DNA of 64,000 bases, from the NCBI GenBank assembly GCA_963843335.1, contig CAWJKF010000019.1, forward strand, positions 15,701 to 79,700, in the 5' to 3' direction. Of the stretch, positions 14,612 through 52,065 are shown piece after piece; position 1 is the first letter of the stretch; the number at the start of each line of letters is the position of its first letter. The notes beneath the pieces are model-generated. The model was given only the letters and a program-made list of their open reading frames with translations, ran no database searches and was not told the origin of the DNA. Source of the stretch: an uncultured Chloroflexia bacterium (GTDB taxonomy: Bacteria > Chloroflexota > Limnocylindria > Limnocylindrales > CSP1-4). A program made the position numbers and the translations under genes.

Positions 14612-16235
14612 CGCGGGCGAAGGGTGTGATCCGGTCGAGCGCGAGGTCCAGCTCCGACTCGGTCACGTCATCCACGTCGACGACGCTGCCGATGGCCATC
14701 GGCAGGATCCAGCGCTGCCGACCGCGGACCCGCTTCTTGTCCGAACCCAGGGCATCCCGGACGGCGGCCCGGTCGAAGGAGCGGGTGCAGGCGATAGCCC
14801 AGCCGGCGGAGCAGCGTCATCGATGCGCTCCGACGAGGCCCGACTCCGCGCCACGACACTCGGCGATGGCGGTGACCGCCCGCAGGCCGAGCACGACCGC
14901 CTGGCCATGTGGCAGCCGATAGCGGCTCTCGATCTCCAGAGCATGGCCAAGCGTGTGGCCCAGGTTGAGCGTCCGCCGCTCACCCGATTCGAACGGGTCC
15001 CGGTCGACGACTCCCAGCTTGAGGCGCATCGCGCGCTCGACCATCGCATAGCGTGCCGCCTCGTCGGGCGACCCGCCCGACTCGTCGCCGAGCGCGGCCT
15101 GCCCGCGGGTCTCGAGCAGCGACCACAGCCAGGGGTCGCCGATGATGGCCGACTTGAGCACCTCCGCCAGGCCGTCGAGCAGCAGCTCGCGAGGCAGCGT
15201 CCGCAGCGCCGCCACGTCGCCGATGACGGCCACGGGCGGCCAGAAGGCCCCGGCCGCATTCTTGGCCGCGGCGAGGTCGACGGCCACCTTGCCACCGATG
15301 GCCGAGTCGGACTGGGCGAGCCACGTGGTCGGCACCTGGATGAGCGGCGCACCCCGGAGGTAGAACGCCGCGGCCGTGCCGACGAGGTCGCCGGTGGTGC
15401 CGCCACCGACCGCGATCCAGGCATCGCCACGTTCCGCACGCAGCGCCGCCGCCGACTCCAGCAGCCGCTCCACGGAGCTCATCCGCTTGCCCCGCTCCCC
15501 CGCGGTGATGCGGAGCTGCCGCTCCCCCGGGAGTGCGGCCATGAGCCCGGGGAGTGCCGCGGCCGCCCGCTCGTCGGCCACGACCACGGGCGCGCCCGTG
15601 GACAGACCGGCCACGAGCGGGCCGAGCGTCGCGGCATCCAGGTCGCGGCCGTAGACGACGCGCGCCGTTCGGGGTCCCATCGGATGGTCGCGCCGGGCCT
15701 GTGCGTCGTACAGCCGCCGGGCGCCCGACCGTGGCCGGGATGCCGCGGCCAGCACCGCCGCCGCAACGGCCCGGGTGCTGCCCGCCGACTCCACCCGGTG
15801 GTCTGCTGCGGCGTAGAAGGGTTCCCGTGCCTTCCGCAGGCGCGCGAGCGCGGCGAGCGGGTCCCGCGCCACGAGCGGGCGGCGTTCGCCGGAGCGACGC
15901 ACCCGCTCTGCGAGCCGCTCGTCCGGGGCGTCGAGCCAGACGGCCGTGCCCGCCTCCCAGAGCGCCCAGCGGCTGAGCGGGTCGATGACCGCGCCACCGC
16001 CGGTGGCGATGACGGCGCCCGGGACATCCGCCGCGCGGCGCACCTCGGCCGCCTCGATCTGGCGGAACCGGGCCTCGCCGTCGCGCTCGATGATGTGCGC
16101 CGGCGAGCTGCCGGTCTCGGCCTTGATGCGCGCGTCGAGGTCGATGAACGGTCGACCGAGCGACTCGGCGACCAGGCGGCCGACGCTGCTCTTGCCGCTC
16201 GCGGACAGCCCCACGAGGACGATGGCGTCAGGCAT
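14598..16235 (-). pseudogene. Bifunctional shikimate kinase / 3-dehydroquinate synthase (AroK-AroB fusion). Two compensating frameshifts (near 14822 and 14778) create an in-frame stop at 14817
   Basis: AroK part: LVGLSASGKSSVGRLVAESLGRPFIDLD...ATGGGAV. AroB part: GGGTTGDLVG..AA.YLRGAPLIQVPTTWLAQSDSAIGGKVAVD...NLGHTLGHALE. The C-terminus resumes as ..FDRAAVRDALGSDKKRV..WILPMAIG. Confidence 0.85.
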
Positions 16236-22850: not shown

Positions 22851-23711
22851 TCATGCATCGTCCCTGACCGAGGTGGATCGCGGGTCGGCATCGGTGAGGG
22901 GCCTGGAGCGTCGATCCGCCGGGTCCAGCCACGCGAAGGTGTCCGCGGCATCCGCCGAGGGACGATACTCGAGGCCGACGAACCCGCCGTATCCGACGTG
23001 CTCGAGTTCCTCGAGCACACGAGTGACGGCGACCTCACCGGTCCCGGGTCGCCCTCGATCGGGCACGTCGGCGACCTGCACATGGCCGATGTCCGCGCCC
23101 TGGGCGCGGATCCGAGCGACGAGATCCCCTTGGGCTCGCTGCACGTGGTAGATGTCGAACAGGATCCGAACGGGCGTCCCTGCGGCGTCAGCGGCACGCC
23201 GTGTGAGCGTGACCGCATCTTCCACGCGCGTGAGCCCGTAGTGAGGGAAGTCCGTTGGATTGAGCGGCTCCAGCACGAGCAGCGCGCCAGCCGCCGCGAC
23301 ACGCGGCGCCGCGATCGCGAGACTGGCGACCGCCGACTCCTCCAGCACGTCCCGTGCGACACCCGGAGGCGGCACGCCAAAGTGGCTGTTGACGATGGTG
23401 CCGCCCAGCCGCCGGACCACCTCGGCGGTCGCGTCGACGTTATCGATGAAGCGGGAGCGCTCCTCGGGGCGGCAGAGGAGCCCGTGGTGACCCGCGGCCG
23501 GGTCGCCCAGGTCGAGATTGAGCAGGACCAGCTGGACACCGGCAGCATCGAATGCCTCGACCAGGTCGTCCACGTCGCGAAGTGCCGGGACCGGCCCATC
23601 GAATGGCCACCACATCTCGACCGCGTCGAACCCGGCGGCGGCCGCGGCGGCCGGGCGGCCCAGCAGCGGGACGTCCGGGAAGAGGATCGAGATGTTGGCG
23701 TCGAAGCGCAT
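22851..23711 (-). CDS. Hydroxypyruvate isomerase-family TIM-barrel protein (Hyi / 2-oxo-tetronate isomerase OtnI-like)
   Basis: MRFDANISILFPDVPLLGRPAAAAAAGFDAVEMWWPF...LEPLN...HVQVADVPDRG.PGTGE...GYGGFVGLEY. Confidence 0.75.
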   Translation of the reverse strand: MRFDANISILFPDVPLLGRPAAAAAAGFDAVEMWWPFDGPVPALRDVDDLVEAFDAAGVQLVLLNLDLGDPAAGHHGLLCRPEERSRFIDNVDATAEVVRRLGGTIVNSHFGVPPPGVARDVLEESAVASLAIAAPRVAAAGALLVLEPLNPTDFPHYGLTRVEDAVTLTRRAADAAGTPVRILFDIYHVQRAQGDLVARIRAQGADIGHVQVADVPDRGRPGTGEVAVTRVLEELEHVGYGGFVGLEYRPSADAADTFAWLDPADRRSRPLTDADPRSTSVRDDA

Positions 23712-23833
23712 GTCGCGGACCCCCGGTTCAGTGCCCGACAGCGGGCTCGGTCACGGCCCAGGTCTCACGACCCCGGCTCGCGGTCATCCGTTGGATCCCG
23801 TTGGCTCGCATCACCACGTCCGCATCGTCACCG

Positions 23834-24796
23834 TCATGTGCTCGGGTGAGCCACCCGTGCCTTGAGGTCCAATGCGTCGTGCGCCGCCTTGACGACACCC
23901 GCGGTGGACAGCCCGAGGTGCTCGAGGAGCTCCAGGTATGGCCCGGTCGTGCCGAACCTGTCGTCGATGCCGACCCGGATGATGGGCACCGGATAGGTGC
24001 CACCCAGTGCCTCGGCGACCGCACCCCCGAGCCCACCGACGATGCTGTGCTCCTCCGCGGTGACAAGCGCCCCGGTCTCCTGGGCCGCCGCCAGGATCGT
24101 CGTGGTATCGAGCGGCTTGATGGTGTGGACCTCCACCACCCGGGCATGGATCCCCTCGGCCGACAGCAGCTCCGCGGCTTCGAGGCATCGGCTGAGCATG
24201 ATGCCGGTGCCGACCAGGGTGACATCGGCGCCAGGTCGGTGGACCATCGCCGTGCCGATCCGGGGGGCGTAGGTGTCGTCGAACAGGACGGGCACCTCAT
24301 TGCGGTTCAGGCGCACGTAGACCGGGCCGGGCCAGGCCGCGATCTGCGGCAGCAGCCTGGTGACGGCCATGGCATCGGCAGGTACGACGATCGTCATGCC
24401 GGGCAATGCGCGCATGATCGCGATGTCGGCGATCGCGTGATGCGTGGGCCCGTCGAACGAGTCCGACACACCAGCATAGGCGCCCATGAGCTTGACCGGC
24501 GCACCGCCATAGCAACAGTGGGTCCGGACCATCTCGAGGGCCCGGGTGGCCAGCAGGAACGCGAACGTATTGGCGATCGCCACGCGCCCGGTGTAGGCCA
24601 CCCCGGCGGCGACGTCCACCAGCGACTGCTCGGCGATGCCGACATTGAGGAATTGGTCCGGGAACGCCTCCGCGAACTGATAGCTGAAGTCCGAGTTGGA
24701 GACGTCCGCCGAGAGGACGACCACGTCGTCGCGGGCACGTCCAAGCTCGACGAGGGCCTGGCCGTATGCCGGGCGCATGGGCGCCATCGGGGTCAT
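23834..24796 (-). CDS. Transketolase, C-terminal (pyrimidine-binding) subunit
   Basis: FPDQFLNVGIAEQSLV..AAG.A..G...FA.F....A.E.VR...GAYAGVSDSFDGPTHHAIADIAIMRALPGM. ATGA overlap with the N-terminal subunit gene. Confidence 0.85.
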   Translation of the reverse strand: MTPMAPMRPAYGQALVELGRARDDVVVLSADVSNSDFSYQFAEAFPDQFLNVGIAEQSLVDVAAGVAYTGRVAIANTFAFLLATRALEMVRTHCCYGGAPVKLMGAYAGVSDSFDGPTHHAIADIAIMRALPGMTIVVPADAMAVTRLLPQIAAWPGPVYVRLNRNEVPVLFDDTYAPRIGTAMVHRPGADVTLVGTGIMLSRCLEAAELLSAEGIHARVVEVHTIKPLDTTTILAAAQETGALVTAEEHSIVGGLGGAVAEALGGTYPVPIIRVGIDDRFGTTGPYLELLEHLGLSTAGVVKAAHDALDLKARVAHPST

Positions 24797-25728
24797 GCCG
24801 TGACCTCTTCGCCCAACTCGACCAGCGAGCTTCGGAGTTCGCTGCGCGCCTGCTGATACTGCTCCGCGTTCGGTATGCCACCGTGCCAGCGATGGTCGTA
24901 CTCCATGAAGCTGACCCCGCGCCCCTTGGTGGTGCGGGCGAGGATGACCGACGGCCGGGCGTGGACCTCGTCGGCGCGGTCGAGCGCGTCCAGCACCTCG
25001 CGCACGTTGTGCCCGTGCACCTCCTGCACGTGCCAGCCGAACGAGCGCCATCGATCCGCGAGTGGCTCGGTCGGCATGACGTCCGCCGTGGCGCCCGTCT
25101 GCTGGATGCCGTTCACGTCCACGATCGCGGTGAGGTTCCCGAGGCGGTACTTCGCCGCGAACATGACGCCCTCCCAGACGATGCCGGCGTCGAGCTCGCC
25201 ATCCCCCAGGAGGACATACACGCGCGCACGGGTCGCACGAGCCGACGGCGCGCTCGCCGCGGATGGCTTCGGGATGCCCCGGGAGAGTGACCACGCCATG
25301 CCGGCGCCGACAGCGATCCCGTGCCCCAGCGGCCCGGCCACCATCTCGACACCGGGCAGCTTGAGGTCCGGGTGCCCCTCCAGACGTGTCGGGAAATGAC
25401 GGAACGTCGTCAGCTCCGCTACCGGGAAGAACCCGGCGCGGGCGAGGACCGCATAGAGGATCGGGGCGGCATGGCCCTTGGACAGCAGGAACCGATCCCG
25501 CTCTGGCCAGCCCGGGTCCGCCGGATCGACCCGCAGGTGGTGGAAGTAGAGCGCCGCGATGATCTCCGCCGACGAGAACGGGCCACCCAGATGCCCGGTC
25601 TGGGCGCGGTAGACCATGTCCAGGACATCCATCCTGAGGTGCTGGGCCCGCCTCGCGAGGTCGAGCGCGAGCTCGTCCGTGTGTTGGTGCATCCGTGTGC
25701 CTCGCACCGCAGGGTTGGCCGCTGTCAT
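24793..25728 (-). CDS. Transketolase, N-terminal (TPP-binding) subunit
   Basis: TGHLGGPFSSAEIIAALYFHHL...DRFLLSKGHAAPILYA...GPLGHGIAVGAG...LLGDGELDAGIVWE. The start may instead be the ATG at 25692. Confidence 0.8.
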   Translation of the reverse strand: MTAANPAVRGTRMHQHTDELALDLARRAQHLRMDVLDMVYRAQTGHLGGPFSSAEIIAALYFHHLRVDPADPGWPERDRFLLSKGHAAPILYAVLARAGFFPVAELTTFRHFPTRLEGHPDLKLPGVEMVAGPLGHGIAVGAGMAWSLSRGIPKPSAASAPSARATRARVYVLLGDGELDAGIVWEGVMFAAKYRLGNLTAIVDVNGIQQTGATADVMPTEPLADRWRSFGWHVQEVHGHNVREVLDALDRADEVHARPSVILARTTKGRGVSFMEYDHRWHGGIPNAEQYQQARSELRSSLVELGEEVTA

Positions 25729-25741
25729 GGCGCCCGTGTAT

Positions 25742-25753
25742 TGGTCAACCGGT
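25742..25753. promoter_or_regulatory. TGGTCAACCGGT box (copy 1 of 3), followed by the GGTGCACC palindrome, upstream of the transketolase operon
   Basis: The exact 12-mer is shared with 27421-27432 and 52046-52057. On the minus strand it contains TTGACC. Confidence 0.45.
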
Positions 25754-25802
25754 GCACCAGTGTACCACACGGCGACAGCGGCACCCGGACCAGGCGGGCG
25801 TG

Positions 25803-26649
25803 TCAGGCGCGGGCGAGTGGCAGGACCTCACGGGGGATGAGCGTGCGCAGGTACGAGATCGCCTGCCGTGCGGCCTCGTCCGCCGATGGGTATGGCAGGA
25901 TCCTCGACGGAGACCCAGTCGTCGTATCCGATGGTCCGCAATGCGCCCAGGATGGCCGGGAAGTCGGTATGCGCCTGGCCCGGCGCCCAGCGATTGCTGT
26001 CCGCGAGGTGGCAATACCCGACCATCGGCCCGGCCGCGACCAGGCTGTCCGCGATCGATACATCCTCGATGTTCATGTGGAAGACATCCGGGTGGAGCTT
26101 GACGTTCGCGTGCCCGATGCGGCGAACGAGGGCGATGCCATCGGGGTCGACGCTGTTGATGTAGTTGAGCTCGTATCGGTTGACAGGCTCAAGGACCAGG
26201 TCGATGCCGACCGACCCTGCGTGGTCGGCGATCCGGCGGATCCCGGCCGCGAAGCGGGCCTCCGCCCTTGCCGTCGTGTCGCCGTCGGGGACTCCGCCGC
26301 GAACTCGTCCGATGTTGATGCGCGTGGCGCCGAGCTCGGCGGCCAGGTCGGCGAGCCCGATGAGGATGGCGACGGCGCGATCGCGTGTCGCCTGGTCGGC
26401 ACTGGTCAGCCAGACGCGCTGCTCGGCGAACACCCGGCCACTGGTGATGGCCGCAATGCCCATCCCGTGGTCGGACAGCAGCCGCTTGACCTCGTCCGGC
26501 TGGACATCGTCCGCCCGGCCAAGGGCGAGCTCCACCCCGTCGTAGCCGAGGCGGGCCGCCTTGGGGATCGTGACGTCGAGCCGGTCACGAAAGACCACGA
26601 ACGCCGAGGGCTGGGCGTCGTGGGGTGCGATCGCCAGGGCGATCTTCAC
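25803..26649 (-). pseudogene. Sugar phosphate isomerase/epimerase (xylose-isomerase-like TIM barrel), one frameshift at 25902
   Basis: AARLGYDGVELA...LEPVNRYE.NYINS...HLADSNRWAPGQGH-like...GYDDWVSVE | ILPYPSADEAARQAISYL. The frames abut at GAG-G-ATC. Confidence 0.75.
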
Positions 26650-27350
26650 GATGACACCTCGTGCTTGGCCGTCACGACCTCGACGGCATCAGGGAGGATG
26701 GTCCGCCGGACGTCGGCGAGCGCGAGCTGTGGACTGGCGAGGACCGGGACGGGCGGTGGGGAGGCGGCGAGGAGCGGCAGCACGCGCGCCATCGTGGCCT
26801 GGGCGAGGACCACGACATCGACGCCGCTCGCTGCGGCTCGCACGGCCTCGACCACGAGCCGGTCGTGCGTCTCGACATCTCCCGAGACGAGTGCCGCCAG
26901 GGCCCCGTCGACCAGCCAGGGGACGATCTCGACATGCGCGCCGGAGCCGGCCGCCGCCGTTTCCAGGAGCACCCGCGATGGCCCGAGCGTGGTGGTCGCG
27001 GTGGCGACGAGCGCGATGCGATGGCCACTGCGCACGGCCGTGGCCGCCATCGCGTCGTCGATCGCGAAGATGGGGATGGTCGCCGTCGGACGCACCTGAC
27101 CGACCGAGAGGGACACCGTCGAGCAGGTCACCAGGACTGCCGCCGCGCCGATCGCCTCTGCCAGTCGAACGTGCTGCAGCAATCGCTCATCGTCTTCGGG
27201 GTCGCCGTGACCTCGCCGCCTGATCCGCTCGAGCATCGGCTCATCCAGGACGTGGAGCAGACGGCACTCGGGTATCTGCTCGGCGCTCCACGCAGTGAAC
27301 GAGGGCACCAGGACAGGCATCGTATGCACCAGCACCAGGGTCGGGGCCAT
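26646..27350 (-). CDS. Asp/Glu/hydantoin racemase-family protein
   Basis: VLVHTMP...AAAVLVTCSTVS...IALVATATT...DVVVLAQATMA layout. This is a family-level call only. Confidence 0.5.
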   Translation of the reverse strand: MAPTLVLVHTMPVLVPSFTAWSAEQIPECRLLHVLDEPMLERIRRRGHGDPEDDERLLQHVRLAEAIGAAAVLVTCSTVSLSVGQVRPTATIPIFAIDDAMAATAVRSGHRIALVATATTTLGPSRVLLETAAAGSGAHVEIVPWLVDGALAALVSGDVETHDRLVVEAVRAAASGVDVVVLAQATMARVLPLLAASPPPVPVLASPQLALADVRRTILPDAVEVVTAKHEVSS

Positions 27351-27420
27351 CGTGCCTTCCTGTCGCGGGCCCATCGTGCCCTCCTGCGTTTCGGCCGCGC
27401 CAGTCGCTTTGATGGTCCAC

Positions 27421-27449
27421 TGGTCAACCGGTCATCCATTCTGTATGAT
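27421..27449. promoter_or_regulatory. TGGTCAACCGGT box (copy 2) with a plus-strand TATGAT -10 element (27444-27449) in the divergent intergenic region
   Basis: Read directly. The box occupies the -35 position relative to TATGAT (17-nt spacer). Confidence 0.45.
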
Positions 27450-27513: not shown

Positions 27514-28296
27514 ATGTCGGAGATGGAGCGCATCGGCCAGGTCCTTCGCGAGGCGGAGGCATCCCGCACCGCGGTCGGACCGGTCTCGGACCTCATCGAG
27601 GGCGGGCTGACGCTCGACCAGGCGCACGCCATCTGCGAGGCGAACATCGCGCGCCGGGAAGCCGCCGGCGAGCGCATCGTGGGCTACAAGGTCGGCTTCA
27701 CGAACATCGCGGTGCGCGAGAAGATGGGCCTCCCTGACTCGACCTACGGATACCTCATGGGGAGCATGGTCCTGGAGTCTGGCGGCGTGCTGGACACGAC
27801 CGCGCTGGTCGCCCCCAGGATCGAGTCCGAGATCTGCGTCCGCCTCGCACGGGACCTTGCTGGACCGGGTGTGACGGCTGCCGATGTCCTCGCGGCGAGT
27901 GACGCGGTCCGCGCATCCTTCGAGATCTGCGACGCCAGGATCCGCGACTGGAAGTGCCCGTACCCCGATTTCTTCGCCGACAACGGATTCTCGGCGCGGA
28001 TCGTGCTCGGTGGCACCGGCTGGGTGCCGACGGGGCAGGTCGACCTGCTGAACGAGTCCGTCGTGATCTCCAGGGACGGGGCACCGTTCGCCGAGGGGAG
28101 GGGTGAGATGGCCCTGGGCAGTCCGGCGAATGCCGTCGCCTGGGTGGCCAACAAGCTGTCCGAGCGTGGTCGCATGCTCGCAGCGGGCATGCTGGTCATG
28201 ACCGGGACGCTCACCCCCATCACCCCGATCCAGGCTGGCTCGACGTATCTCGGGGCGTTCTCCACGCTTGGCACCGTCGAGATGACCTTCACCTGA
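27514..28296 (+). CDS. 2-keto-4-pentenoate hydratase / 2-oxohepta-3-ene-1,7-dioate hydratase-family protein
   Basis: LTLDQAHAI...GERIVGYKVGFTN...PRIESEICVRL...MLVMTGTLTP. AAGGAG RBS 10 nt upstream. Confidence 0.7.
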   Translation: MSEMERIGQVLREAEASRTAVGPVSDLIEGGLTLDQAHAICEANIARREAAGERIVGYKVGFTNIAVREKMGLPDSTYGYLMGSMVLESGGVLDTTALVAPRIESEICVRLARDLAGPGVTAADVLAASDAVRASFEICDARIRDWKCPYPDFFADNGFSARIVLGGTGWVPTGQVDLLNESVVISRDGAPFAEGRGEMALGSPANAVAWVANKLSERGRMLAAGMLVMTGTLTPITPIQAGSTYLGAFSTLGTVEMTFT

Positions 28297-28348
28297 CCCC
28301 GATCCGTGATGGACGGGCGGAGCCCGTCGCCTGACAGGGAGGCCCGTC

Positions 28349-29312
28349 GTGACCCCAGACCGCACCACGCTCCTGGAGATGTACCGCCGGATGGTCCGCA
28401 TCCGACAGTTCGAGCTGGCCGCGACCGACATCTTCAAGCGAGGACAGCTCAAGGGCACCGTCCACACGTACATCGGCATGGAGGCCTCCGGGGTCGGTGT
28501 CTGCATGGCGCTCCGAGGACGACGACCTCATCGCGGGAACGCATCGAAGCCACGGCCACAACATCGCCAAGGGTGCCGACCTGCGGCGCATGATGGCGGA
28601 GCTCCTGGGCAAGGAGACCGGCTACTGCAAAGGGCGCGGTGGATCGATGCATATCGCCGCGTTCGAGACCGGCAGCCTGGGCGCGCTGGCCGTCGTCGGC
28701 AGCGGCATCCCGCTCGCGGTCGGGGCGGGTCTGGCATTCCAGATGCGCGGCGAGGACGCGCGTCGCGGTGCCGTTCACAGGTGACGCGGGGTCCAATACC
28801 GGCAATTGGCACGAATCGCATGAACATGGCCGCCGCGTGGGGCCTGCCGGTCGTGTTCGTGCTCGAGAACAACCACTTCGGGGTCTCGACCCGCATCGAG
28901 GACGTCGTCAAGGAGCCCGACCTGTCACGCCGCGCGGCCGGCTACGGCATGCCCAGCATCCGTGTCGATGGCTTCGATGTCCTCGCGGTCCACGAGGCCG
29001 CCACCGAGGCCATCGAGCGCGCGCGCTCAGGTGGGGGTCCGACCCTGCTGGTCACCGAGAGCTATCGGGTCGATGGCCACTATGCGGGTGAGCCAGAGGT
29101 CTACCGCGACAAGGCCGAGGTGGCCGAGTACCGGGCCAAGGACCCGATCGTGCGCTTCCGCGCCCACCTCATCGACGAGGGCCTCGTCGCGGCCGCCGAG
29201 CTGGATGGCGTGGACGCGGAGGTCGCGGCACTCGATCGAGGGGTCCATCGCCTTCGCCAAGGCGAGCCCCGAGCCCGACGCGGCCACGGCCCTCGACTAC
29301 ATCTACGGCTGA
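28349..29312 (+). pseudogene. TPP-dependent 2-oxoacid/acetoin dehydrogenase E1 alpha subunit, four frameshifts (near 28513, 28763, 28818 and 29234)
   Basis: [15 protein letters not shown]...[15 protein letters not shown]...GRGGSMHI...[10 protein letters not shown]...AAAWGLPVVFVLENNHFGVST...GYGMPSIRVDG. GGAGG RBS before the GTG at 28349. Confidence 0.8.
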
Positions 29313-29430
29313 GAGAAGGAGCCGAAGATGACCACGCCCACGCGCGATACCGTCTCACTCGCCGGGAACGTGCCGGCGATGTCGCCAGACACGATCCGCC
29401 AGGTCCCCGACGGGGTGCCCGGCGAAGCTC

Positions 29431-30422
29431 ATGAGCTACCAGGAAGCGATCCGCGAGGCACTCCGCGAGGAGATGCGCCGCGACCCGTCGGTCTTCCTCA
29501 TGGGCGAGGACATCGCCAAGCACGGCGGCGCCTTCGGCGTGACCAGGACCCTGTTCGACGAGTTCGGGGCGGACCGGGTCCGCAACACGCCCATCTCGGA
29601 GAACACCATCGTGGGTGCCGCGACGGGCGCGGCCCTCGTCGGGATGCGCCCGGTCGCGGAGATCATGTTCGTCGACTTCAGCGGCCTGGCCATGGACCAG
29701 ATCGCGACCCAGGCGGCCAAGCTTCGCTTCATGACCGGCGGCCAGTGCCTCGGTCCCGTGGGTGCTGCGGATGCCCCAGGGCGGCGGTGCCGGCAAGAGC
29801 ACGGCAGCCCAGCACAGCCAGAGCCTTGAGGTCTGGTTCGCCCACATCCCGGGCCTCAAGGTCGTGTTGCCGTCGACGCCTTACGACGCCAAGGGCCTCA
29901 TGAAGGCCGCCATCCGTGACAACGACCCGGTGGTCTTCCTGGAGCACAAGCTGCTGTATGCGTTCAAGGGCCTCGTGCCGGACGAGGACTACGTGCTGCC
30001 GCTGGGCAAGTGCGATGTCAAGCGTGAAGGCACCGACGTGACGGTCGTGGCCTCCGGCTACATGGTCTGGCACGCGATGGTCGCCGCCCAGGCGCTCGAG
30101 CACGAGGGGATCAGCGTCGAGGTCGTCGACGTACGGACCGTGTCACCCCTGGACGCACGGGACGATCGGCGCGTCCGCCCGCAAGACCGGGCGCGTGGTC
30201 GCGGTCGCGGAGGCGTGTGAGCAATACGGTCCCGCGAACGAGTGGGCCATGGTCGCCGTCGAGCAGGCGTGGGACCGGCTGCAGGCCCCCGTCGTCCGCG
30301 TGGCTGGCCGTAACTCCCCCATCCCCTTCGCCAACAGCCTCGAGAACGGCGTCTGGCCGGGGACGCAGGATGTCATCGACGCGATCCGCACCGTGATGGC
30401 CGGGCGCGCGTCAGGCTCATGA
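29431..30422 (+). pseudogene. E1 beta subunit, two frameshifts (near 29750 and 30164)
   Basis: MSYQEAIREALREEMRRDPSVFLMGEDI...NTPISENTIVG...[29 protein letters not shown]...[11 protein letters not shown] | [15 protein letters not shown] strong RBS plus ATG at 29328 could be the true start if a third frameshift sits near 29430. Confidence 0.8.
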
Positions 30423-30461
30423 GAACCAGGCCGTCCGGAGCCGGCAGAAGGAGGGCGCTAC

Positions 30462-30740
30462 ATGGCCACTGAGGTCTTCATCTCCAAGATGACCGACTTC
30501 ATGGAAGAGGCCACGATCCTGTCGTGGCTCGTCGCTGATGGCGACCACGTGGACGAGGGCCAGGCGATCCTGGAGCTCGAGACGGACAAGGCGACGGCGG
30601 AGCTGGAAGCGCCGGCGACGGGGTACCTGGTCGGGATCCGTGCAGGCGCGGTGACCGGGGCGGTGATACGGGTCGGCGAGACGATCGCGTACATCGTCGA
30701 CATGCCTGACGACGCGGTAGCAGCCCTGCCGCCGCTCTGA
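30462..30740 (+). CDS. Free-standing biotinyl/lipoyl-attachment domain protein (92 aa)
   Basis: EATILSWLVADGDHVDEGQAILELETDKATAELEAPATGYL contains the lipoyl-lysine motif ETDKA. There is no E2 catalytic domain and no E3 gene nearby. Confidence 0.8.
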   Translation: MATEVFISKMTDFMEEATILSWLVADGDHVDEGQAILELETDKATAELEAPATGYLVGIRAGAVTGAVIRVGETIAYIVDMPDDAVAALPPL

Positions 30741-30785
30741 CCATCCCAATGTCGTGCCGCAGCGGGCGCGACCGGAGGCGCACAA

Positions 30786-31568
30786 GTGGAACTCAACGGA
30801 CGCGTGGCGCTCGTGACCGGAGCCGCGAGCGGCATCGGTCACGGCATCGCCCAGCACCTCCATGGCCACGGGATGTCCGTGGCACTCCTGGACAGCGACC
30901 CACACGTCATCGACCTCGCGTCAGACCTGGACGCGGATGGCCGACCGGCGATGGGACTGGTCGTGGACGTGACGGATACGAGGAGCGTGCGCGAGGCGTT
31001 CGAGCGCGCCGAGGCGGAGCTCGGGCCACCGTGGCTGCTCGTCAACTGCGCCGGCGTGTACGCCTCGGGACCCACGGTCGACCTGTCCGAGGCCGACTGG
31101 GACCGGTGCATCGGGGTGGACCTCAAGGGTGTGTTCCTGTGCTCGCAGGCGGCCCTCCGGACCATGATCCCCCATGGTGGAGGACGGATCGTCAGCATCA
31201 CCTCCATCGCTGGCCGCATCGCCCGACCGGCGCAGATCGCCTACTGCGCCGCCAAGGCGGGGGCCGACCACTTCACCCGGTGCCTCTCCATCGAGGTCGC
31301 CGGTCAGGGTGTGACGGTCAACTCCATCGCGCCCGGGATGACCCAGTCGCACATGCTGGATGCGGTCATCAGCCGGGGGGCGAGCCCGCAAGCGCTCCTG
31401 GCCCTCATCCCGGACGGTCACTTCGCGGTCCCCGAGGACCATGCTGCCCTGGTGGCCTGGCTGGCCAGCGACGAGGCCGCACACGTCACCGGCCAGGTCA
31501 TCAGCGTCGACGGCGGCCAGTCGCTCTACCAGCCCATCGCGACCGGAGCGCTCACGTCCAGGGAGTGA
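30786..31568 (+). CDS. SDR-family oxidoreductase
   Basis: VTGAASGIGHGIA...NCAG...SIAG....YCAAKAG. Confidence 0.85.
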   Translation: MELNGRVALVTGAASGIGHGIAQHLHGHGMSVALLDSDPHVIDLASDLDADGRPAMGLVVDVTDTRSVREAFERAEAELGPPWLLVNCAGVYASGPTVDLSEADWDRCIGVDLKGVFLCSQAALRTMIPHGGGRIVSITSIAGRIARPAQIAYCAAKAGADHFTRCLSIEVAGQGVTVNSIAPGMTQSHMLDAVISRGASPQALLALIPDGHFAVPEDHAALVAWLASDEAAHVTGQVISVDGGQSLYQPIATGALTSRE

Positions 31569-31645
31569 CGGGGGGCTTCCTGCGCCATGGGCGGGGACGC
31601 CCTCGTCGGGCTGACACGCTGCTCTAGCCTGGCGGTAGCAGAGAC

Positions 31646-32677
31646 ATGAAGGCACTGATGAAGGTCGCTCCAGAACCTGGGCTCGAGATCGTCGACATCC
31701 CGATGCCCCGGATCGAGCATCCCGATGACGTGCTCTTCAAGGTCGAGTTCTGTGCCATCTGCGTTGGCGAGACCAAGGTCTACGACTGGAACCAGTGGGC
31801 GGCGAGCGACCCGACGCTGCAACTTCCCGCCGTACTCGGCCACGAGGCGTCCGGGACGGTCGTTGACGTCGGCTCCGGCGTGAAGGGCCTCCGGCCCGGT
31901 GACCGCATCGTCAACGACCCCCTGATCCACTGCGGTCGCTGTCGACAGTGCCGCGCTGGATTCACCAACATGTGCGAGGAGCGCGAGATCTACGGCAAGC
32001 GGCGCGGCGCATTCGCCGAGTTCGCGGTCCTGCCCGAGAGCGCGATCTGTTCCTTGAGCGACAGACTGAGTCTGGAGGAGGGCGCGCTGCTGGAGAACCT
32101 CGGCATCGCCGTGCACGCATGCGAGGTCGAGCCCCATGATCCCGGTGACTGGGCCGTCATCATCGGAGCCGGCCCGATCGGGATCCTCGCCGCGCAGACG
32201 CTCGTGGCCTGGGGGATGAACGTCGTGGTGACCGACCTCGTCGATGCGCGGATCGCCTTCGCGCGTGCGTGGTCGGGTGCGACCGTCATCGACCTGAAGG
32301 AGGAGGATCCGATCCAGCGGGTGCTGGACCTTACGGCAGGTCGAGGCGCCGACTTCATCATCGAGATGGCAGCCAACCAGGCCGCTATGGACCAGGCATT
32401 CGAGATGGTCAGGATCCGCGGCACCGTCGTGACCATCGGCACCTTCAACGGACCGATCTCGTTCAATCCGTTCTTCGCGTTGTCGCGACGAGAGGTCACG
32501 CTTCGGAGCGCCATGGGCCGGACTGGAGAGACGTGGCGCCGGATGGCGCAGCTCATCGAGTCGGACAAGCTCCGACTGCGGCCGCTGATCGACGAGATCT
32601 TGGCGCTCGATCAGTTCGTTCAGGGGTTCGAGCTGGTCAAGGGGCACCAGGTGCAGAAGATCCTGCTGCGACCCTGA
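31646..32677 (+). CDS. Zinc-dependent medium-chain alcohol/polyol dehydrogenase
   Basis: CAICVGE...[10 protein letters not shown]...GDRV...[12 protein letters not shown]...GAGPIG. Confidence 0.85.
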
Positions 32678-52023: not shown

Positions 52024-52065
52024 AGTATGGCATCAGCGACGGCAGTGGTCAACCGGTGTACCGGT
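52024..52065 (-). promoter_or_regulatory. Promoter TTGACC-17 nt-CATACT for the ABC operon, overlapped by TGGTCAACCGGT box copy 3 and ACCGGT-GT-ACCGGT
   Basis: -35 at 52052-52047 and -10 at 52029-52024 on the minus strand. The box spans 52046-52057. Confidence 0.5.

Follow-up and report, generated by a model that had tools for sequence, protein, structure and literature searches.

A pyruvate-dehydrogenase-type E1 encoded beside a free lipoyl carrier in a Chloroflexota operon

The usual picture of a lipoate-dependent dehydrogenase is a giant machine assembled around an E2 acyltransferase core. A 64,000-nucleotide stretch of DNA from an uncultured soil Chloroflexia bacterium (hereafter the window) raises the question of how such an enzyme might operate when that core is missing. 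The window corresponds to positions 15701–79700 of contig C19 in a long-read metagenome-assembled genome (G000; 4.42 Mb, ~70% G+C, 21 contigs, 73% estimated completeness), and unlabelled coordinates below are window positions. Its plus strand carries an operon (27514–32677) encoding both subunits of a thiamine-diphosphate-dependent E1 and a small protein consisting of a lipoyl domain, with neither an E2 nor an E3 (dihydrolipoyl dehydrogenase) beside them. We favor, with a probability of roughly 55%, a functional pyruvate-dehydrogenase-type module without an E2 core, in which an alpha/beta E1 works with a separate carrier that is unloaded in trans. Compared loci and genomes carry L and G labels; locus L002 comes from genome G002 and L003 from G021.

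The lipoyl carrier (30462–30740, +) is 92 amino acids (aa) long, ELETDKATAELEAP, and matches PF00364 with 59 bits and PF13533 weakly. Its lipoyl-lysine is K43, within the motif ETDKA. The PF00364 score, the DKA context, and the presence of both LipA and LipB in the genome point to a lipoyl domain of the E2 type; Pfam gave no match to GCV_H (PF01597), which places the carrier outside the glycine cleavage H proteins. A search of 5.8 billion proteins returned 112 short homologues of 50–161 aa, nearly all of them 92–95 aa long and 63–91% identical to it, and the length of 92–95 aa is kept in more than 100 sequence clusters from genomes labelled Chloroflexota, Actinomycetota, and Acidobacteriota. 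Among 20 carrier homologues, 32 alignment columns are invariant, ETDKA included. The C-terminal tail, PDExVxxLPPL (30710–30737), is nearly invariant in the free carriers; in full-length E2 relatives, the equivalent stretch begins the variable linker. The tail may serve as a docking peptide. Ratios of nonsynonymous to synonymous substitution (dN/dS) of 0.13–0.26 indicate that the carrier is under purifying selection. In short-read assemblies, the 92-aa gene follows intact genes for E1 alpha (319 aa) and E1 beta (363 aa), so the carrier is not an artefact of this assembly. The stand-alone lipoyl protein noticed in the first-pass annotation is therefore genuine, and the concern raised there that it might be the 5' stump of a disrupted E2 is refuted by its fixed length across these clusters, short-read assemblies among them.

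Where, then, are the other components? A six-frame search of the whole genome found no E2 catalytic domain (PF00198) and no lipoamide dehydrogenase on the 169-kb contig C19. This also disposes of a frameshifted E2 downstream of 30740, which had been named as the finding that would overturn the proposal: no frame of the contig encodes PF00198 and, because the stop codon of the lipoyl gene lies 45 nt from the start of the next gene, no E2 is hidden between the two. The earlier statement that E2 and E3 are missing is thus correct for the window and the contig and incorrect for the genome: two E2 catalytic domains, a single bona fide E3, LipA, and LipB are encoded on other contigs. The E3, the single match above cut-off, lies at C12:34824–36224, unlinked to the operon, beside a full E2 (C12:37512–38834); LipA is at C12:39006–39890 and LipB on contig C13. 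A complete 2-oxoacid dehydrogenase complex is therefore not encoded at this locus, as no E2 accompanies the E1, while an E3 is available from another contig.

The second E2 catalytic domain belongs to another E1 alpha/beta cluster and is naturally split (G000:C1:406940–407875, equivalent to L123:862–1797, −). It consists of an 85-aa lipoyl open reading frame (ORF), an in-frame TGA, and a catalytic-domain ORF of ~225 aa that has no E3-binding domain. In genome G015 (L008), the two are separate genes: the catalytic ORF starts with an ATG of its own, and the lipoyl ORF is read in another frame. This lineage thus already runs an E2 catalytic domain alongside a lipoyl protein that is not tethered to it. 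In G002 and G021, which carry orthologous operons, E2 catalytic domains likewise reside on other contigs. At one sister locus (L127), the neighboring operon includes a gene for a 247-aa, catalytic-domain-only E2. This protein is 62% identical to the split C1 type and 32% identical to the catalytic domain of full-length E2 orthologues, and is a recruited enzyme, not a relic of a lost domain. We also considered splitting of an ancestral E2 in situ and rejected it, as the sole nearby catalytic-domain gene, that of L127, comes from a different E2 lineage.

Relatives that retain an E2 indicate where the module may have come from. Five clusters encode full-length E2 proteins (390–466 aa, with lipoyl, E3-binding, and catalytic domains) whose lipoyl domains are 57–71% identical to the carrier. 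In Acidobacteriota (L034/L111), comparison with the intact G002 query gave identities of 77% for E1 alpha and 86% for E1 beta; the order there, and also in L126, is E1 alpha, E1 beta, a TIM-barrel gene, and the E2, which in L034 is a 409-aa protein with all three domains. In a second Acidobacteriota locus (L035, short-read), the gene immediately after the lipoyl-only gene encodes a GntR protein. We built a quick, unrooted maximum-likelihood tree of E1 beta that included E1s linked to canonical E2s and the genome's own paralogues. Nine loci, eight lipoyl-only plus L034, form a clade (SH-aLRT 100) separate from the 48 canonical-E2-linked E1s and from those paralogues. Since Acidobacteriota orthologues in apiose clusters keep a full-length E2, the E2 core appears to have been lost in Chloroflexota; most simply, and as far as an unrooted tree can indicate, an ordinary E1–E2 system shed the E3-binding and catalytic parts of its E2, possibly repeatedly. 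The module is rare and patchily distributed: of 25 genomes sampled from the genus, 3 carry it, and one further orthologue (84% identity) turned up among 200 genomes of the class. Two unpublished genomes in that wider set, G141 and G185, gave paralogue-level matches only and support none of the claims made here. As a separate observation, the E2 gene of the full-E2 relative L126 (1107–7394) is immediately followed by a second E1 alpha/beta pair, with KARI-fold, URO-D-like, and rhaM genes nearby.

The E1 itself is of the heterotetrameric 2-oxoacid dehydrogenase family. E1 alpha (28349–29312, +), the thiamine-diphosphate-binding subunit, carries the motif GDAGSNTG at about 28784–28807, and its orthologues match PF00676; E1 beta (29328–30422, +) matches PF02779 and PF02780. 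Among homologues in the PDB, the intact E1 alpha orthologue P0001 matched human pyruvate dehydrogenase E1 alpha (E = 7e-60), and E1 beta matched that of Geobacillus pyruvate dehydrogenase (E = 3e-87). Neither subunit reaches the pyruvate dehydrogenase equivalog models: P0001 scored 338 bits against TIGR03182 (cut-off 393.85) and E1 beta 375.9 bits against NF008854 (cut-off 454). The E1 beta orthologue P0002 passes the subfamily model NF006667 with 370.7 bits (cut-off 321). We place the start of E1 beta at 29328 rather than 29431, which adds a conserved N-terminal extension of 34 residues (29328–29430) with 12 positions invariant in six orthologues. The extension aligns with the linker downstream of the lipoyl domain of alphaproteobacterial PdhB (NF008854) and occurs in lipoyl-only and full-E2 loci alike.

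Both E1 genes are interrupted in the assembly, which the first-pass annotation had overlooked. Alignment to two intact orthologous operons, L002 and L003, located four single-base insertions in E1 alpha (near 28516, 28758, 28820, and 29230) and three in E1 beta (near 29421, 29748, and 30157). With the seven bases removed, both frames are open, at 319 aa for alpha and 363 aa for beta, and contain no stops. GCA_027400025.1 is one assembly with an intact orthologous locus. The corrected E1 genes also have the lowest dN/dS of the operon (alpha 0.07–0.27, beta 0.09–0.17).

All six genes read earlier on the plus strand were confirmed by Pfam and NCBIfam matches and a six-frame view. Upstream of the E1 genes lies an intact 260-aa gene for an MhpD/DmpE/DmpH-like hydratase or decarboxylase of the FAH fold (27514–28296, +; dN/dS 0.14–0.31). 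Its best NCBIfam matches are to DmpE, MhpD, and DmpH, all far under cut-off (TIGR03220, 202 bits against 408.8), and it is assigned only at the level of the fold, by PF01557. Downstream of the carrier follow a FabG-like short-chain dehydrogenase/reductase (SDR; 30786–31568, +, 260 aa) and a zinc-dependent medium-chain dehydrogenase of the threonine/polyol dehydrogenase type (31646–32677, +, 343 aa). When this block was sought in other genomes, the first five genes recurred, with the order hydratase–E1 alpha–E1 beta–lipoyl–SDR fixed in five Chloroflexota loci, and the SDR follows the lipoyl gene in L002, L029, L031, and L032. The sixth gene is not part of the conserved block: the zinc dehydrogenase is absent from this position in the other loci, and the G002 copy, 89% identical, lies ~2 kb upstream of the operon.

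We propose that the E1, with thiamine diphosphate, would act on a sugar-derived 2-oxo acid or alpha-hydroxyketone, by decarboxylation or cleavage, and reductively acylate the lipoyl group on the free carrier's Lys43. Handing the acyl group to coenzyme A (CoA) would then fall to a trans-acting acyltransferase, for which a free catalytic-domain E2 and the housekeeping E2 are candidates, and the genome's single dihydrolipoyl dehydrogenase (Lpd) would re-oxidize the dihydrolipoyl carrier. The components would thus be untethered, in the style of the glycine cleavage system, instead of being built on an E2 core, and the module would descend from a normal E1–E2 system that is still intact in apiose-utilization clusters of Acidobacteriota. 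The first-pass annotation had taken the gene set to suggest non-canonical C–C cleavage; the split E2 in this genome and the full-E2 orthologues make conventional chemistry in trans at least as likely. Structure prediction of a complex of E1 alpha, E1 beta, and the carrier, run on the intact G002 orthologues with alignments, scored 0.19 against a mark of 0.32 and has no bearing either way.

Several observations weigh against this proposal. No acyltransferase gene is present in the window or on the contig, and a catalytic-domain gene lies nearby in just one of ~10 lipoyl-only loci examined (L127), where its product has the low identity to full-length E2 orthologues given above. An E1 normally recognizes its cognate lipoyl domain only, and E2 cores prefer tethered domains; operation in trans may therefore be inefficient. 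The neighbors of the module vary, and some loci pair it with genes for an MttB-family methyltransferase, a corrinoid protein, and aminotransferases. In L033 (6076–12533; Actinomycetota) and L027/L028, a class IV aminotransferase, GntR, an MttB-family methyltransferase, and a corrinoid-binding protein flank the unit, which hints at a second metabolic context; the link of the module to apiose is frequent, not universal. The genome is incomplete, at 73%. Finally, seven breaks in 2.1 kb fall in the upper tail of break density for this genome, so E1 may, with low probability, have been inactivated recently.

A sugar-type context recurs beside the module. Divergent from the operon runs a companion operon (22851–27374, −) encoding an Asp/Glu-racemase-family protein (26646–27374, −), an IolO-like TIM-barrel epimerase (25828–26649, −), the N and C halves of a transketolase (24793–25770 and 23834–24790, both −), and a TIM-barrel protein resembling hydroxypyruvate or 2-oxo-tetronate isomerases (22851–23711, −). 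Companion-operon genes flank the E1–lipoyl unit in L027/L028, L032, L034, L035, and L127. Other recurring neighbors are GntR/FCD regulators and apionate-lactonase-like genes, to which L111 adds a GH140 apiosidase and a TonB receptor; in the window, a convergent operon downstream opens with a 664-aa apionate-lactonase-like protein. Genes of this sugar type (apionate-lactonase-like, GH140, split transketolases, and TIM barrels resembling keto-sugar isomerases) recur in two phyla.

The two divergent operons also share a control box, TGGTCAACCGGT, as had been claimed for this intergenic region. An exact copy (27421–27432, +) overlaps the −35 element of the region's only sigma-70-like promoter site, whose −10 element is TATGAT (27444–27449). 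Further exact copies lie at 25742–25753, ahead of the split transketolase genes, and at a third locus (52046–52057). The box is over-represented: allowing up to two mismatches, we found 15 matches where 4.9 were expected, and none of 100 shuffles reached 15. It is also conserved upstream of orthologous operons, with TGGTC[A/G]ACCGGT found ~80–150 nt ahead of the hydratase gene in six loci (L002, L003, and L029–L032). The three copies suggest a small regulon, and from the shared box we infer that the module is probably co-regulated with the racemase/epimerase/split-transketolase operon.

We considered whether the module might dispense with E2 altogether. The E1 would then cleave, oxidatively and in a transketolase-like manner, a branched ketose or keto-acid of apiose catabolism (e.g., apulose or 3-oxo-isoapionate). 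The carrier would be left with a glycolyl or hydroxyacyl group, to be processed or released by the SDR, the FAH-fold protein, or a hydrolase. The constant five-gene order in Chloroflexota would fit such a device, as would a carrier tail that is conserved in the free form only, the absence of a linked acyltransferase from most lipoyl-only loci, and the placement of the module within apiose-type clusters without the published lower-pathway enzymes. The best models for the SDR are also carrier-protein-dependent FabG reductases (221 bits, cut-off 222), although FabG-type matches are generic among SDRs. Two lipoyl-only loci, L033 and L035, lack both hydratase and SDR, so neither enzyme can be a general unloading device, and the close orthologues employ an ordinary full-length E2, implying an acyl-CoA product. 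Moreover, action of non-E2 enzymes on acyl-lipoyl proteins is without known biochemical precedent. We regard this as a possible reading, on balance an unlikely one. A more specific form appears doubtful: that the free carrier serves as acyl carrier in an undescribed lower branch of catabolism of D-apiose or a related branched sugar acid, with E1 cleaving a branched ketose or keto-acid oxidatively and passing the C2 unit to lipoate without any E2 core.

The module could also be an acetoin/2,3-butanediol unit, with the E1 subunits as AcoA and AcoB, the SDR and zinc dehydrogenase as butanediol dehydrogenases, and the carrier as a remnant of AcoC. The best NCBIfam match of the carrier is indeed to the N-terminus of the acetoin dehydrogenase E2 model NF011457 (E = 4e-17), and the SDR matches models of meso-butanediol dehydrogenase and of acetoin reductase with 159–173 bits; zinc-dependent dehydrogenases of this type include (R,R)-butanediol dehydrogenases. 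All matches to Aco and butanediol families are far under the family cut-offs, however (59.8 bits against 307 for the carrier), and the position of the zinc dehydrogenase is not conserved. The operon has neither a linked AcoC hydrolase-fold or E2 domain nor a linked AcoL and is accordingly not assigned to AcoABCL. Matches to the hydrolase part of NF011457 are weak and lie elsewhere in the genome, and a search for a separate AcoC-type hydrolase-fold acyltransferase gave weak alpha/beta-hydrolase matches alone, none linked to the operon. Nor is there an AcoR gene among the scanned neighbors: the nearby regulators are GntR/FCD, and the promoter-like site is sigma-70-like with the shared box. With conserved neighbors that are sugar-acid genes (split transketolase, keto-sugar epimerase/isomerase, and apionate-lactonase-like), an acetoin function is very improbable.

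The remaining question is whether the interrupted E1 genes are real. Elsewhere in the same assembly (G000:C2:2161–9976), the rpoC coding sequence is spread across three or more frames and that of rpoB across two; both genes are essential. A GC3-frame Viterbi scan, which recovers the E1 breaks, found 1317 frameshift candidates genome-wide, in clusters; 6.7% of 2.1-kb windows hold three or more of them, the number that the scan detects in the E1 region. Because rpoB and rpoC are frameshifted too, candidates number ~1300 across the genome, the E1 breaks are insertions only, and dN/dS is low, we read the seven breaks as very probably consensus errors of the assembly. The same abundance of single-base indel errors probably also explains why a genome in 21 contigs is estimated to be 73% complete, and it makes a face-value reading of apparent pseudogenes in this long-read metagenome-assembled genome unsafe. 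That the operon is instead decaying, with E1 genes that are true pseudogenes in this strain and a leftover lipoyl gene, would account for seven breaks in 2.1 kb next to an intact hydratase, lipoyl gene, SDR, and zinc dehydrogenase and for the patchy distribution, yet is most unlikely given that bacterial gene decay is generally deletion-biased while every break here is an insertion, that the corrected frames hold no stops at a dN/dS of about 0.1, and that essential genes are broken likewise.

A pyruvate-dehydrogenase-type module with a free carrier can be set against several known systems. With the alpha2beta2 pyruvate and branched-chain complexes (human PDHA1/PDHB, Geobacillus pyruvate dehydrogenase E1, and Thermus 2-oxoacid dehydrogenase) it shares a homologous E1, the thiamine diphosphate motif, and an E2-type lipoyl domain with DKA. 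Unlike them, it has a separate lipoyl domain and no E2 core, E3-binding domain, or E3 on the contig; its E1 alpha falls under the pyruvate dehydrogenase equivalog cut-off, and its E1 beta bears the 34-residue extension. The full-E2 loci of Acidobacteriota and other soil bacteria (L034/L111, L126, and L125) have orthologous E1 genes; their lipoyl domains are 58–62% identical to the carrier, and they share the split transketolase, TIM barrel, racemase, GntR, and apionate-lactonase-like genes, with GH140 in L034/L111. They differ in having a complete E2 of 390–466 aa, with E3-binding and catalytic domains, and no MhpD-like hydratase. The AcoA/AcoB/AcoC/AcoL system has a heterotetramer-type E1 known to cleave a hydroxyketone, not a 2-oxo acid, and linked dehydrogenase genes are common to both; the operon described here has no AcoC acyltransferase domain, AcoL, or identified acetoin activator, its matches are sub-threshold, and its context is one of sugar acids.

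The mechanism that we propose is modeled on the glycine cleavage H protein, a small free lipoyl shuttle between a decarboxylase, an unloading enzyme, and dihydrolipoyl dehydrogenase. The carrier differs from it in having no GCV_H homology and in being loaded by an enzyme that uses thiamine diphosphate rather than pyridoxal phosphate. Cooperation of lipoyl and acyltransferase domains of one reaction on different polypeptides, in trans, is known from the corynebacterial and mycobacterial OdhA–AceF system (PMC10415282, PMC7568260). In that system, E1o bears the catalytic domain as a fusion and the lipoyl domains are part of a full E2p core, whereas the carrier described here is wholly free.

Literature searches turned up no publication describing an E1 paired with a free E2-type lipoyl protein and none characterizing any such module. 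A conserved, selected, core-less version whose close relatives retain the full E2 allows a direct comparison of both forms, and provides a tractable system for asking whether an E1 and a free lipoyl domain can work untethered and what unloads the carrier. The module also sits in clusters for apiose, a plant cell-wall sugar, whose lower pathway differs from the published one, and it may supply a missing catabolic step.

Similar gene sets occur elsewhere. In RefSeq, small genes of this kind already bear the label 'lipoyl domain-containing protein', and a megaplasmid of Thermus thermophilus, a cultured organism, encodes E1 alpha, E1 beta, and an 82-aa 'biotin/lipoyl-containing protein', with a TRAP transporter next in line, again without E2 (NZ_LR027520.1:102410–121399; L118). 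Its E1 beta is 52% identical and forms a separate long branch, and its neighbors are different; the Thermus triad is an independent example. Within G000 itself, a small Biotin_lipoyl ORF (C18:43039–43251; locus L120:1270–1731) lies directly upstream of an HpcH/HpaI-aldolase/malate-synthase-like/DUF6986 gene and may be another free carrier, paired with a C–C lyase.

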